Shown: positions 1,920-23,529 of the stretch, piece after piece | Layout: the number at the start of each line of letters is the position of its first letter | Position numbering within the stretch: the first letter of the stretch is position 1 | Source: a virus | Virus record (IMG/VR): IMGVR_UViG_3300048909_000330 | Coordinates: 598-64,597 of that record | Reading direction: 5' to 3' (one strand) | DNA length: 64,000 nt | Notes under the pieces: model-generated | The model's database searches: none | Seen by the model: the letters and a program-made list of their open reading frames with translations, nothing else | Told to the model about the DNA's origin: nothing | Translations under genes and position numbers: made by a program

Positions 1920-2185
1920 GACTTATCCCCGCGCTCAACTGGAGCGGCCAACTTGCGGATAGCGGCGGCGCATTCGGCCTTGATCCTGGCGTATTCCGTC
2001 CAGTCGTCCGGCGGATTTGTCGGCTCTATCAACTGCGCCGCACGTTCCAGCGCGGCAGCTTCACCGGCCTTCCACGACTCCCATGCAGATAGTTGCAGCA
2101 GCCTTTCTGCGTCGTCGCATGGACGATCGAGTAGCCGCGGCTGCATCTTTTTGGCCCACGCCTCAAACCTTTCTCGCTGATCCAT
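1916..2185 (-). CDS. Hypothetical phage protein
   Basis: Likely start MDQRERFEAWAKK; stop overlaps the next start. Confidence 0.6.
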   Translation of the reverse strand: MDQRERFEAWAKKMQPRLLDRPCDDAERLLQLSAWESWKAGEAAALERAAQLIEPTNPPDDWTEYARIKAECAAAIRKLAAPVERGDKS

Positions 2186-4848: not shown

Positions 4849-5595
4849 TTAGGCGGTCAACTCGAATTCGGCTATTGCGGCTTCGAGGATTCGTTCGCGC
4901 GCGATCTTGAAATAGTCCTCGTCAATCTCGATACCGATGAATTTCCGGCCGGTGTTCGCGCATGCAACGCCTGTCGTGCCACTACCCATGCAGTTGTCCA
5001 GCACCGTGTCGCCCTCGTTGGTGTACGTGCGAATCAGGTACTCCATCAGGTCGACGGGCTTCTGCGTCGGATGTAGCGCGGATTTCTGCTTGTCACCCGA
5101 GAAGAACAGCACGCTTCTCGGATAGCGTTGCGTCGAGTCGTACGAGGTCTCGCGCTGCTTACCGTAATTCGTTGAATAACTCGATCGCCTGGTCGTTTTA
5201 CGAGCATGCCCATCGGTCATTTGCGGGTTATAGGTCGGCTGCGTCCGGTAGAAAACCAGCGCGTTTTCATGCGCCTTCAGCGGCGCGCGGTTCGCGTTCA
5301 GATGCCCTGTAGCGTTACCCTTTTCCCAGATCCATTCGTATCGCAGATTGGCTAGGTTCGAGGCACCCAGAACCTTATCGAACGGTGTCTGGGCAGTCAG
5401 CACAACGGCACCGCTGCACACGCGGTCGTACTCAGCCCAGATCCGCTGCAGATCAAGCTGCGAATCCCATTTGTTGCGGGTCGTGCCGTACGGCAGATCG
5501 CACAGCACGAGCTGCACACTCTTGTCGTCTAGTCGCGGCAGCACGTCAAAGCAGTCTCCGAAGTGCAGCGTCGCATCTTTTATGATTACCGGCAC
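4849..5595 (-). CDS. DNA N4-cytosine/N6-adenine methyltransferase (beta class), orphan
   Basis: DLPYG (motif IV), HPTQKP and VLDNCMGSGTTG (motif I) in beta order; no cognate endonuclease. Confidence 0.92.
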   Translation of the reverse strand: MPVIIKDATLHFGDCFDVLPRLDDKSVQLVLCDLPYGTTRNKWDSQLDLQRIWAEYDRVCSGAVVLTAQTPFDKVLGASNLANLRYEWIWEKGNATGHLNANRAPLKAHENALVFYRTQPTYNPQMTDGHARKTTRRSSYSTNYGKQRETSYDSTQRYPRSVLFFSGDKQKSALHPTQKPVDLMEYLIRTYTNEGDTVLDNCMGSGTTGVACANTGRKFIGIEIDEDYFKIARERILEAAIAEFELTA

Positions 5596-5629: not shown

Positions 5630-6769
5630 TTAGGCCGTCATTGCTGCGCGGATGAATTCCGCCGCGGCTTCCGCGTTGATCGCGTTGCCGTAGGCGCGCA
5701 GTCGTCCCACTCGCGAGGGAGCCCCATTAACCAGCGGGAATGTGCCGGGTTCAACTGGCCGCCACTTTCCATCCCGGCACAGGAGCCAGTCAGCAGCTCG
5801 CCAGAAGCCGTTAGTCGGGCCGGCTGGTTCGTTATGCACACTTCGACCGTCTTGCGACTGCTGTCCGTGTTTCCCGCGGCGTTGTATCCCCTCTGCGCCG
5901 GCGTGCCCGCCATAGGAGTGGGCCAGCCCGCGAATTGCGCCACATGATTCAGGCTCACCGCCACCTTGCGGCCGTCCGGCGTCTGCCCTGTCGCGCTCAA
6001 GCCCTCGAACGACTGCGAGCCCTTCGAATTTCCAACTGTCGGCGTCGGCCAGCCGGCCAGCGTCGACGCCATGCCCAGCGTCATCCCGAAGCCGTTGTTT
6101 CCGTGACGAGCTGCGCACTCCGCTCGCCGCGCTTCCCACGTCGAGTCGTTGTCGTTCTGCGGCCCCGCGTTCGGTGTCGGCCACGATGCCAGCCACGCCA
6201 CGCGCCCGAGCAATGCATTCAGCGGCACGTTCGCGCACTCGCTGCCGTCTTTGTGATCGCGCGTCGTTGGCGTAGGCCACGAAGAAAGTGCGGTCTCTGA
6301 TGTGCGGCGCACCGACGCCCGCAGACGGGAAAGGGTTCGCGGCGCCGGCGTAATCCACGGCTTCCAGGTCATCGAAAACAAGGTCGATCCAAGGGTCGAC
6401 ATCCTTGCTTGCAACCTGCTCGCCAAAGATGACTGGAGGGCGGCACTCGCTGATGAGGTGGTGCCACGCCGGCCAGAGGTGCCGCTCGTCAGCAAACCCA
6501 GCTCCTTTGCCTGCCTGGGAGAAAGGTTGGCACGGACAGGAACCGGTCCAAACAGGTCGATCATCAGGCCATCCGGCGAGTCGAAGCGCGTACGACCAGA
6601 CACCGATTCCGGCGAAGAAATGGCACTGTGTGTATCCGCGAAGGTCGTCTGGTCGAACATCCTCAATGCTCCGTTCATCAACGTCGCCGGGTGCAATGTG
6701 TCCGGCGGCTATCAGGTTGCGCAGCCACGCTGCGGCGTATGGTTCGATCTCGTTGTAGTAAGCAGCCAT
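5630..6769 (-). CDS. C5-cytosine DNA methyltransferase, alpha-like chain lacking motif IX
   Basis: HFFAGIG (I), GSCPCQPFS (IV), GEQV (VI), [10 protein letters not shown] (VIII), YGNAI (X); start [10 protein letters not shown]. Confidence 0.88.
5638..6660 (-). CDS. Nested +1-frame beta-like MTase chain with four WPTP repeats and a motif IX-like segment
   Basis: 340-codon frame inside the alpha gene; GGAG 8 nt before its ATG; [13 protein letters not shown] resembles motif IX. Confidence 0.75.
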
Positions 6770-13431: not shown

Positions 13432-13814
13432 GGCTTGTCCTTTGCGAGGTCTCGAATCTGATCGCGTAATTCCGCAACCATGCGCGTCAAGTCATAGACC
13501 AGCCGATGCGGCTTGTCTTCCCAGTTGTACGAGTGCTCACCCTCTCCGCACACGCCGAGATGGAAAGCCCGAAGATCCGGATATTTCGCTGCAGGGCTCG
13601 GGAAGTTGTTGGTGTGGGCCATATCAATTTCCCATTGCGAGGCAAGGCTCTGTAAGTCGCGGCTGAGCATCGGAACCCGCAGCACCCAATACCCATCCTC
13701 GCGCTGCAGCCAGTTCCCCACGTCAACAGACGCCCGGTTCGCATCCTCAACCTCAACGAAACGGCCAGACGTCGGGCCGGGTGGACCGTCGAAAAGTATG
13801 TCGATGTAGCTCAT
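13428..13814 (-). CDS. Hypothetical phage protein
   Basis: Likely start MSYIDILFDGPPGPTSGRFVEVED. Confidence 0.7.
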   Translation of the reverse strand: MSYIDILFDGPPGPTSGRFVEVEDANRASVDVGNWLQREDGYWVLRVPMLSRDLQSLASQWEIDMAHTNNFPSPAAKYPDLRAFHLGVCGEGEHSYNWEDKPHRLVYDLTRMVAELRDQIRDLAKDKP

Positions 13815-20649: not shown

Positions 20650-22040
20650 ACGCACCTGACCGCATCCCCGGAAACGGCGGCCTGACCGTCCCTCCGCAGG
20701 CCATCGAGGCCGAGCAGTCGGTGCTAGGTGCCCTTCTGCTGGACAACGACTCTGTTGACCGGATCGCCGAGCTTCGCGCCGACCAGTTTTATCGATACGA
20801 CCATCGCGTCATTTTCGATCACATCACGCGATTGATTCTGGCTGGGCGCCGCGCCGATGTCATTACGACCTTCGAAGCGCTTTGCGCTTCCGGCAAGGAT
20901 GAGCAGGTTGGCGGTTTGAAATATCTGAACGCGTTGGCACAAAACACACCTGGTAGCGCGGGGATCAAGCGTTATGCGGAAATCGTGATCGAGCGCGCAC
21001 AGCTACGAGGCATTCTGTGCGCCGTCGATGAGATTGGCGCGATGGTCCATAACCGCGCCGGCAAGACCGCATCGGAAATCATCGCCGAGGCTCAGGAGCG
21101 TTTCGAGCCGCTGGCCGAGACGCGCAGTTTCGAGCCGAAAGAAGTTGGTCCAGTCCTAACGAGCATCGTTGAAGAAATCGACGCCCGCTACCACGGAGCC
21201 GAATTGCCGGTTGTGTCGACGGGGTTCAGGGACTTGGACGACAAATTGGGCGGCGGTATGCGGGGCGCTGAATTGATCATCGTGGCGGGAAGACCGTCAA
21301 TGGGCAAGACTGCACTGTCGATGTGCGTCGCCGGCCATGTGGCGCAAGGGGGTGGATCGGTGCTGGTCTTCTCGCTCGAGATGTCGGCCAAGTCATTGCA
21401 TCAGCGCAACCTGTCGCGCATCGGTGGGATTCCGCTGGGCCACGTTCTGGACGGCAAGAAGATCACCGATGAAGACTGGCCGCGCCTGACGCACGGGGTG
21501 GCAGTCATGTCTGAAATGCGCATGTACGTCGACGATACCTCTGGTCTTTCGATGTCGGAAATCGCGAGCCGCAGCCGTGCGATCAAGCGCCGTGCTGGCC
21601 TGGATCTGATAGTCGTTGATTACCTCGGCCTGATGACTGGCGGCACCGAAGAGCGGCAAGACCTGAAGATTGCCGGTTATTCGGCCGGTCTTAAGGGCTT
21701 GGCGAAGCAACTGGATATTCCGGTAATCGTGCTGGCCCAGCTTAACCGCGGCGTCGAGCAGCGGCCGAACAAGCGCCCGACGATGGCGGACCTGCGCGAC
21801 TCAGGCGCAATCGAGCAGGACGCCGACCTGATTTTGATGCTCTACCGCGATGAAGTCTACAACCTCGATAGCCCGGACAAGGGAACCGCCGAGCTGATCA
21901 TCGGCAAGCAGCGCAACGGTGAAACCGGCATTGTGCGACTCGCGTTCTTTGGTGAGAAGCAGAAATTTGCGGACATGGCGCCCGGTTATATGCCGGCTCC
22001 TCGGCCGGTGCCCGAGAAAACCCGGCGCGGATTTGAATGA
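20646..22040 (+). CDS. dnaB: DnaB-like replicative helicase
   Basis: EAEQSVLGALL, GRPSMGKT Walker A, IVVDYLGL, QLNR, DLRDSGAIEQDAD. Confidence 0.96.
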   Translation: MNAPDRIPGNGGLTVPPQAIEAEQSVLGALLLDNDSVDRIAELRADQFYRYDHRVIFDHITRLILAGRRADVITTFEALCASGKDEQVGGLKYLNALAQNTPGSAGIKRYAEIVIERAQLRGILCAVDEIGAMVHNRAGKTASEIIAEAQERFEPLAETRSFEPKEVGPVLTSIVEEIDARYHGAELPVVSTGFRDLDDKLGGGMRGAELIIVAGRPSMGKTALSMCVAGHVAQGGGSVLVFSLEMSAKSLHQRNLSRIGGIPLGHVLDGKKITDEDWPRLTHGVAVMSEMRMYVDDTSGLSMSEIASRSRAIKRRAGLDLIVVDYLGLMTGGTEERQDLKIAGYSAGLKGLAKQLDIPVIVLAQLNRGVEQRPNKRPTMADLRDSGAIEQDADLILMLYRDEVYNLDSPDKGTAELIIGKQRNGETGIVRLAFFGEKQKFADMAPGYMPAPRPVPEKTRRGFE

Positions 22041-22219
22041 CCCAAGCCGAAGCCCTCTCCCGCTTCACTCTCGCAGTACGAGACGGCAAGAGCGGCAACT
22101 ACGGTAAGGCGGTTGAAATAGTTGAGGCGGTGCGGAAGAAACACGGTGATGTTGCGGCGGCGATAGCGCGCAAGGAGATTTGGGCATGTATCAACAGCGA
22201 ACGGTGGGATCGGAAGTAA
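22037..22219 (+). CDS. Small hypothetical protein
   Basis: Coupled to the dnaB stop. Confidence 0.6.
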   Translation: MTQAEALSRFTLAVRDGKSGNYGKAVEIVEAVRKKHGDVAAAIARKEIWACINSERWDRK

Positions 22220-22221
22220 CG

Positions 22222-23529
22222 ATGGCGCGTAGGAGTGCTTACAGCGAAATGACATACGGCTCTGTGTGTTCGGGCATCGAAGCCGCTTCATGCGCTTGGC
22301 ATCCGCTCGGGTGGCGCGCTGCCTTTCTGAGCGAGATCGAGCCTTTCCCGTCAGCCGTGCTGGCCCACCACTACCCGACCGTCCCGAACATGGGCGACAT
22401 GACCAAATTCAAGGATTGGCCTGATGCAACTATCGATCTTCTCGTTGGAGGAACCCCCTGCCAAAGCTTCAGCGTCGCTGGACTACGAAAGGGACTGGCT
22501 GATCCGCGTGGCAACCTCATGCTCACCTATCTTGCCATTGCTCAGCGCTTCGCTCCCCGCTGGCTGGTATGGGAAAACGTCCCCGGCGTCCTGTCATCTA
22601 ACGGCGGAAAAGATTTTGGAACCCTCCTCGGAGGGCTGGCAGAACTCGGGTATGGGTTCGCCTACCGCGTTCTTGACGCTCAATACATCCGAGTGGAATC
22701 ACATTCTCGAGCCGTCCCTCAACGACGCCGGCGTGTGTTCGTTGTCGGACATCTTGGAGACTGGCGACGTGCCGCAGCGGTACTTTTTGAGCGCGAAAGC
22801 CTGCTCGGGCATCCTGCGCCGCGCCGCGAAGCGGGGAAAGGAATTGCCCCTACCCTTAGCGCGCGCACTAAAGGCGGTGGCGGACTCGGAACGGACTTCG
22901 AGTGCGACGGGGGATTGATTCCCGGCGTGGCCCGTGCCCTGACGACGAGCAATCAGCGCATCGATGCGGAAACGGAAACGCTGTTGGTAGCCCATTCGCT
23001 TCGCGGCGAAGGATTTGACGCGAGCGAAGACGGGACCGGGCGCGGTACTCCCCTCGTGCCGATCGCATTCGATTGTAAGGCGTCCGGCCAGAACGGATTT
23101 GGCGTGGGCGACATCGCATCCACGATGCGCAGCATGAGCCATTCGAATTCGCATCAGAGCGGCGGCGGTCATCTGGCGGTAGCCCAGCCCTACACGCTCG
23201 CGATCCGTGGTCGCGGCGACAGTCACCAACTCGAATACCGCCAGGACGGCACGGCGAACGCGGTGCTCACGCCCAACGGCGGCCGCGGCGGAATCGGCGT
23301 TGGTGCAGTTGCGACCACATATGCGGTGCGTCGCCTCACGCCGATGGAGTGCGAGCGCTTGCAGGGATTTCCTGACCGCTACACAGATATCCCGTTCCGC
23401 AACAAGCACGCTGCCGACGGCAACCGATACAAGGCCTTGGGTAACTCCATGGCCGTCAACGTGATGTCCTGGATTGGCCGACGCATCCAGCTCGTCGAAT
23501 CTTTGTCGGCACATAAGGAGGCCGCATGA
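22222..23529 (+). CDS. C5-cytosine DNA methyltransferase with a long multi-module variable region
   Basis: SVCSGIEAA (I), GGTPCQSFS (IV), ENVPG (VI), QRRRRVFVV (VIII), RRLTPMECERLQGFPD (IX), YKALGNS (X). Confidence 0.93.
   Translation: MARRSAYSEMTYGSVCSGIEAASCAWHPLGWRAAFLSEIEPFPSAVLAHHYPTVPNMGDMTKFKDWPDATIDLLVGGTPCQSFSVAGLRKGLADPRGNLMLTYLAIAQRFAPRWLVWENVPGVLSSNGGKDFGTLLGGLAELGYGFAYRVLDAQYIRVESHSRAVPQRRRRVFVVGHLGDWRRAAAVLFERESLLGHPAPRREAGKGIAPTLSARTKGGGGLGTDFECDGGLIPGVARALTTSNQRIDAETETLLVAHSLRGEGFDASEDGTGRGTPLVPIAFDCKASGQNGFGVGDIASTMRSMSHSNSHQSGGGHLAVAQPYTLAIRGRGDSHQLEYRQDGTANAVLTPNGGRGGIGVGAVATTYAVRRLTPMECERLQGFPDRYTDIPFRNKHAADGNRYKALGNSMAVNVMSWIGRRIQLVESLSAHKEAA
22424..22918 (+). CDS. Nested +1-frame ORF inside the C5 MTase
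   Basis: AAGGA 8 nt before its ATG; MQLSIF start; SLSDILETGDVPQRYFLSAKACSGILRRA. Confidence 0.65.
   Translation: MQLSIFSLEEPPAKASASLDYERDWLIRVATSCSPILPLLSASLPAGWYGKTSPASCHLTAEKILEPSSEGWQNSGMGSPTAFLTLNTSEWNHILEPSLNDAGVCSLSDILETGDVPQRYFLSAKACSGILRRAAKRGKELPLPLARALKAVADSERTSSATGD

Follow-up and report, generated by a model that had tools for sequence, protein, structure and literature searches.

On its minus strand, the window (the whole 64,000-nt stretch analysed, part of a 69.6-kb virus contig) carries a gene with two overlapping open frames, and the nested frame contains four WPTP-headed units, here called cassettes, that relatives carry in other numbers, kinds and orders. The explanation that we favour, and to which as a whole we give slightly better than even weight, is an orphan phage C5-cytosine methyltransferase (MTase) made as two chains from one stretch of DNA, in which exchangeable recognition cassettes would each specify one target.

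The two-frame gene

The outer frame, alpha, holds the C5-MTase motifs I, IV, VI and VIII within its first 165 residues, and its match to Pfam family PF00145 beats the curated cut-off. By these catalytic motifs, of the forms FxGxG, PCQ, ENV-like and RxR in that order, alpha qualifies as a putative C5-cytosine DNA methyltransferase, and its motifs I-VIII align with those of the SPbeta MTase in hhalign. A Gly/Arg/Ala-rich linker follows, which spans 89-234 residues among relatives, and then a C-terminal segment with motif X. The inner frame, beta, is nested within alpha. The parts of the two chains outside the cassettes are as follows.

5630-6769, minus strand: alpha chain gene (PF00145, E 2e-13, residues 107-206; phrog_363 over its full length)
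6602-6619, minus strand: alpha motif I
6518-6541, minus strand: alpha motif IV, with PCQ
6413-6427, minus strand: alpha motif VI
6290-6304, minus strand: alpha motif VIII, HIRDR
about 5813-6274, minus strand: Gly/Arg/Ala-rich linker of alpha
5633-5812, minus strand: C-terminal segment of alpha, including motif X (YGNAI, 5678-5692)
5638-6660, minus strand: beta chain gene, nested and one base out of step with alpha, from its probable start
6286-6531, minus strand: constant N-terminal domain of beta, dual-coded with alpha motifs IV-VIII
6346-6369, minus strand: degenerate head TWKPWITP in the beta N-domain (WITP at 6346-6357)
5698-5823, minus strand: constant C-terminal core of beta, dual-coded with the alpha C-terminal segment
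5707-5757, minus strand: motif-IX-like segment of beta, so assigned by its pattern and its predicted packing on motifs X and VIII, with no profile or PDB match

The beta frame is open over 5638-6696 on the minus strand, and its likely start is the ATG at 6658-6660, which has GGAG 8 nt upstream. This ATG is kept in 49 of 75 relatives, and a Shine-Dalgarno-like word stands upstream of it in 41 of those 49. The ATG at 6562-6564 (MIDLF) was rejected as the beta start because it is not conserved. A subgroup from Burkholderia phages (L002, L019, L020, L024, L029, L030, L034, L048 and L051) lacks the beta-start ATG; there the beta frame is open further upstream, with TTG or GTG as the only candidates, and the start may differ. 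Beta matches phrog_1008 and phrog_31772, PHROG families annotated as DNA methyltransferase, and has no match in Pfam or NCBIfam. Against the PDB, a search with the single sequence returned only noise and one with a profile returned nothing.

Located in the early region of the phage, the gene has an N6/N4 methylase, an SSB, a YqaJ recombinase and a DUF551 protein as neighbours; no nuclease partner gene was found among them. The N6/N4 methylase (PF01555, E 6e-31) is encoded directly downstream, at 4849-5595 on the minus strand, and the phage has three methylase genes when the two-frame gene is included. The third, a second C5 methylase at about 22000-23400 on the plus strand, likewise has tandem units, of the TL type (IAPTLSARTKGGGG among them), and a nested frame whose translation begins QLSIF.

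To determine which frame is under selection in each part of the gene, we compared 80 related viral loci and three phage records, and for the cassette array 75 distinct beta proteins. In 82 of the 83 loci neither frame is interrupted, and the register between the two is always the same. Upstream of PCQ, substitutions fall at alpha codon position 3, and thus only alpha is selected there. Between PCQ and motif VIII constraint extends to every codon position, a sign of dual coding, and the last 45 codons before the end of beta are likewise constrained at all three. The array behaves differently from either: within cassette types, 67% of substitutions fall at beta position 3 and 12% at alpha position 3. 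Among codons that carry one difference, the beta reading gives 6976 synonymous and 1050 non-synonymous cases, the alpha reading 358 synonymous and 7229 non-synonymous ones. From this substitution pattern, the cassette array is protein-coding in beta alone, and the amino-acid sequence of alpha across it appears immaterial.

The alpha frame is nevertheless free of stops in all 75 arrays and in all 45 cassette types, and the third frame is closed in every one of the 75. When synonymous codons were redrawn with the family's own usage, about 208 alpha stops and 4.5 open arrays were expected against the zero stops observed. This supports selection for keeping the array open in alpha, and it agrees with the original prediction that both frames stay open. 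Since alpha is kept stop-free, ribosomes presumably must read it through the array to reach motif X. The closest relative (L004:339-1364, 78% beta identity), on a 4.9-kb contig, has a stop in the alpha C-terminal segment (RDEK*RPV) with beta intact, and thus shows a broken alpha or else a mistake of assembly.

Cassettes in the window and among relatives

Four WPTP units had been proposed in the beta frame at 5860-6300; all four are present, over a somewhat different extent, 5824-6285. Their WPTP heads lie on the minus strand at 6268-6279, 6172-6183, 6040-6051 and 5914-5925, and give the window the line-up A-F-C-E; one of them stands in the context AGWPTPMAG.

6190-6285, minus strand: cassette 1, type A, 32 aa; 35 copies in relatives, 33 of them in first position
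6058-6189, minus strand: cassette 2, type F, 44 aa; tail with GNNGFG; missing in L013
5932-6057, minus strand: cassette 3, type C, 42 aa; head WPTPTVGN; positions 2-5 in relatives; missing in L011
5824-5931, minus strand: cassette 4, type E, 36 aa; positions 2-6 in relatives

With the head excluded, the four bodies share 10-25% identity with one another. The alpha frame reads VA[DY]/LA[DH] over these units, as had been noted before, with FVAYAN, IVADTE, RLADAD and GLAHSY at the junctions. In the six frames of the 64 kb WPTP occurs six times, four of them within the 120-residue cassette stretch, and because the units are conserved in hundreds of relatives they are not a product of chance. The other two occurrences, at 2152-2163 (plus strand) and 13610-13621 (minus strand), have stops nearby and no cassette context, look chance-like and were rejected as cassettes.

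Units from the relatives were cut at their WPTP heads and clustered into types by their bodies. The 75 distinct genes contain 260 units of about 45 types, arranged in 53 architectures of 2-6 units each. Units span 23-72 residues, mostly 32-50, and all types share the framework of head and tail. A search of 1.84 billion proteins provided an independent sample of 98 full-length representatives, with 2-7 units per protein, and larger arrays reach 8 units (P0051) and about 11 (P0003). The modules are therefore interchangeable among relatives, as had been proposed, and their number varies from homologue to homologue.

Cassette order is free. Among the 75 genes type B is found at positions 1-4, type C at 2-5 and type E at 2-6; the same type meets many different neighbours, and preferred neighbour pairs were not seen. 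No type occurs twice within one protein in any of the 53 architectures, compared with a mean of 10.5 and a minimum of 2 in 5000 shuffles. DNA-level conservation at the junctions exceeding protein needs was looked for and not found. Clustering at 50% identity places the relatives of beta in 12,362 representative clusters, roughly 9,000 of which have E <= 1e-10; such relatives are found in phages of Burkholderia, Pseudomonas, Xanthomonas, Escherichia, Klebsiella, Salmonella and Rhodobacter. We see an even chance that the family draws on a shared pool of at least 45 dual-coding-ready cassettes, whereby 5mC protection would be combinatorial, multi-target and rapidly retunable, each enzyme having 2 to about 11 heads.

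Two kinds of irregularity were observed in beta homologues. In the type J cassette of L024:1489-2598, 21 residues are repeated exactly (ARKVGLSCGQSVTTLDHQVQL twice); this duplication is partial and lies inside the cassette, and is not one of a whole cassette. In the long homologues P0005, P0012, P0018 and P0047, an HNH-like zinc-finger nuclease with Cys pairs and an HHVNQD-type motif is inserted, either within the N-domain or behind motif IX. P0005 repeats part of its motif-IX tail beyond the inserted stretch, and this suggests a mobile element.

Related loci differ by whole cassettes. Aligned with L011, the window shows a single clean gap of 126 nt that corresponds to cassette 3 (type C), and with L013 a clean gap of 132 nt that corresponds to cassette 2 (type F); the joints of both indels sit in the shared GWPTP-coding head. 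Indels of whole modules in multiples of 3 nt are what the original prediction had called for. Contigs of relatives in soil and root metagenomes provide further joints at module borders: 5824/6038 with 108 other letters between, 5824/6041 with 213 other letters between, and 5823/6190, which skips 366 nt comprising F, C and E. Cassette turnover is much faster than core divergence: the same architecture is retained in 5 of 35 pairs at 94-97% core identity, and L008 and L018, with cores 98.5% identical, have one type in common.

Among the sequencing runs, only that of the probable source sample contains the stretch itself, and all others contributed small shares from relatives. A root-metagenome RNA-seq library (run X24) contains an 810-nt contig of a relative that matches window positions 5750-6562, in which 213 other letters replace cassettes 3 and 4. 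As a sign of transcription this contig is only a hint, and DNA carry-over could account for it.

Position of the array and candidate functions

The place of the array within the enzyme can be read from P0051 (608 aa), a single-frame relative whose other frames have 3-4 stops in the array. This protein runs from motifs I-VIII through a short constant piece and eight WPTP units to motifs IX and X; the motif-IX-like segment is LAPEFSRWLMGYP, and the alpha-type C-terminal segment behind it contains GNAIVPQV. Because the eight units lie between motifs VIII and IX, the array occupies the canonical target-recognition slot; each module may be a target-recognition domain (TRD), as proposed earlier, or an element of one.

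As in P0051, the order of motifs on the DNA of the two-frame gene is that of a canonical single chain, which would also suit a single polypeptide made by two programmed frameshifts, from alpha into beta for the array and motif IX and back into alpha for motif X. We regard this as very improbable. The beta N-domain is constrained where it overlaps alpha motifs IV-VIII, which a single chain would not need, and so is the alpha C-terminal segment where it overlaps the beta core. A stop-free alpha across the array is needed only if ribosomes read through it. Moreover, P0043 (722 aa) fuses a complete alpha, by a short linker, to a complete beta, and M.EcoHK31I is a precedent for two chains (PMC2836561).

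Structure prediction of alpha and beta together is consistent with two associating chains. The predicted complex has an ipSAE of 0.90, against 0.00 for the best control; of 80 solved complexes 58 attained this benchmark mark, as did 2 of 110 mismatched pairs, counts that are only rough because our own alignments were used here. The complex runs agree in at least 70% of contacts with a partner pLDDT of at least 57, and resemblance to solved single-chain C5-MTases may account for the pass. Confident contacts with alpha involve the beta N-domain, both the head and the tail of cassette 1, and the C-terminal core, with the tightest ones predicted between this core and alpha motifs X and VIII. Cassettes 2-4 make no confident contact with alpha in the predicted complex, which is evidence neither way. 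AlphaFold2 gives beta alone a mean pLDDT of 54, with no readable fold; for P0051 it predicts the catalytic domain confidently and the array at a pLDDT of 24-47. Selection in both frames, the natural fusions P0043 and P0051 and the model of the complex give indirect support to two chains that would both be made, assemble and be needed for activity.

In the enzyme that we propose, alpha would supply catalytic motifs I-VIII and motif X, and beta the constant N-domain, the variable WPTP array and motif IX. The WPTP units would act as exchangeable cassettes in the target-recognition slot, each made of a WPTP head, a type-specific body of 20-40 residues and a short L-x-x-x-A-x-L tail, with the head putatively corresponding to the Thr-Leu motif that is conserved in the recognition domains of C5-MTases. 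Cassettes would be added, removed and swapped by recombination at this head, which all of them share. Because cassettes consist of whole codons and every type is stop-free in alpha, any exchange would leave alpha intact, and alpha would read the array merely as a disordered linker. Each cassette would contribute its own DNA target, such that the enzyme would methylate several sequences and shield the phage DNA from several host restriction enzymes.

A recognition role is favoured by the slot, the matching size, the purifying selection on the bodies and the free order, and also by the absence of repeated types, the rapid turnover in a phage orphan MTase and the Thr-Leu-like head. Multispecificity is the most likely function, one that in our estimate is just on the probable side; that the targets would number one per cassette is drawn from analogy with the Bacillus phage enzymes and with relaxed-specificity phage enzymes of another family.

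Alternatively, the cassettes may jointly form a composite DNA-reading head or clamp that supports relaxed, short-motif or processive methylation, where the number of cassettes would tune affinity or breadth and add no discrete targets. The framework of head and tail common to all types is compatible with this, as is the partial protection of many unrelated sites by phage m5C MTases of another family (PMC3925955; PMC5537653). In addition, parts of one Dcm recognition domain resemble two different cassettes: the head of cassette 1 is like the TL region TLSARYYKDGAE of the E. coli Dcm TRD (L089:1900-3318), and the GNNGFG tail of cassette 2 is like ARGNGFGYG of the same recognition domain. These elements lie at 6058-6285 of the window in an order opposite to that in Dcm, a hint that fragments of a canonical recognition domain gave rise to the cassettes. 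Since the likenesses are split over two cassettes, a cassette may be less than a whole TRD, or recognition may span the junction. In one variant of the composite head, the tail of one cassette and the head of the next would read DNA together and new junctions would create new targets; this predicts preferred neighbour pairs, and none are seen. We consider the composite head unlikely overall, though a serious contender, as it leaves unexplained why about 45 distinct body types are under strong purifying selection, why no type is repeated and why order and neighbours are free.

Cassettes that do not read DNA at all are improbable in our view. They would be protein-binding or decoy modules, for example against host defence proteins, or a spacer, with recognition elsewhere in beta. 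The low confidence with which the array is predicted and the lack of a Pfam family for beta leave room for such roles. However, the interval between motifs VIII and IX of P0051 consists of the array and a short constant piece and offers no other candidate TRD, the head is similar to the region around the TL motif in canonical recognition domains, and strong purifying selection is not expected of a spacer.

Should each cassette indeed add a target, such enzymes would be a means of countering restriction that is widespread and has gone unrecognised. Anyone predicting host range or engineering phages would then need to allow for them, and their cassettes would be a natural library of small, portable 5mC-targeting modules. 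Annotation pipelines usually call one frame, and so the recognition half is often missing from protein databases; beta has no Pfam model. Whatever its function, the gene is an unusually clear case of an evolvable overlapping gene, in which beta shuffles modules at a high rate and alpha is constrained only to avoid stops, which every module in the pool manages through its choice among synonymous codons. If the pool is real, modular protein evolution would be taking place inside an overlapping gene.

Comparison with known systems

In the multispecific MTases of Bacillus phages, units of roughly 40-50 residues stand in tandem in the variable region bounded by motifs VIII and IX, and the set of units differs from phage to phage. 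Such tandem recognition domains give these enzymes several targets (PMC8936443). Like M.SPRI, M.Phi3TI, M.SPBetaI, M.Rho11sI and M.H2I, the gene described here would be an orphan phage C5 methylase with tandem units between motifs VIII and IX, and its WPTP head would be the counterpart of their Thr-Leu/Val motif, although only a short P-T-[LVP]-T is alike. In the SPbeta multispecific MTase, SPTLTT and AFTVNT stand 44 residues apart. Comparison of the beta profile with this enzyme (hhalign) gave a probability of 0.3% and hence no detectable relatedness of the units. Whole-unit indels, swaps and reordering occur naturally and in abundance here, as comparison of sequences reveals. With at least 45 types the repertoire far exceeds that of the Bacillus phage enzymes, and arrays of 2 to about 11 units span a wider range; WPTP takes the place of TL in the head, and the cassettes lie on a separate beta chain encoded in a nested frame.

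The two-chain arrangement has its closest parallel in M.EcoHK31I of E. coli (YGGCCR), where alpha carries motifs I-VIII and X, a small beta carries motif IX, the chains must associate, and the recognition domain is described on alpha (PMC2836561). As there, beta is nested in another frame of alpha and bears the motif-IX-like segment. Unlike in M.EcoHK31I, it is beta here that bears the variable array, together with a constant N-domain, and in the alpha reading the array is only a linker. Recognition on alpha does not fit the present gene, whose variable array is selected in the beta frame only.

Relaxed specificity has been described for other phage MTases. The m5C MTases JCM7686_0772 and JCM7686_2655 of Paracoccus aminophilus prophages partially protect many sites (PMC3925955, table S6), among them AGCT, GGCC, CCWGG, GCGC and CCGG (PMC3925955), and the MTases of Aeromonas phages phiARM81mr and phiARM81ld have been called relaxed in specificity (PMC5537653). 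These enzymes are single-frame and single-chain, without WPTP. We rejected them as members of the WPTP family: a tblastn search with P0043 missed them, and ARM81mr_p29, with five tandem P-x-x-T-V headed units before motif IX, belongs to another module family, so that they serve as an analogy only.

Dcm and M.HhaI have similar catalytic motifs (PF00145) with one fixed recognition domain on one chain and no cassette array. The cassettes show no profile similarity to solved structures. The searchable literature yielded no WPTP-family member with a measured specificity, and nothing on "Mte8", the name of the beta ORF in some records. The closest published systems are thus M.EcoHK31I (PMC2836561) and the multispecific enzymes of Bacillus phages (PMC8936443); here the two-frame gene and the cassettes coincide.
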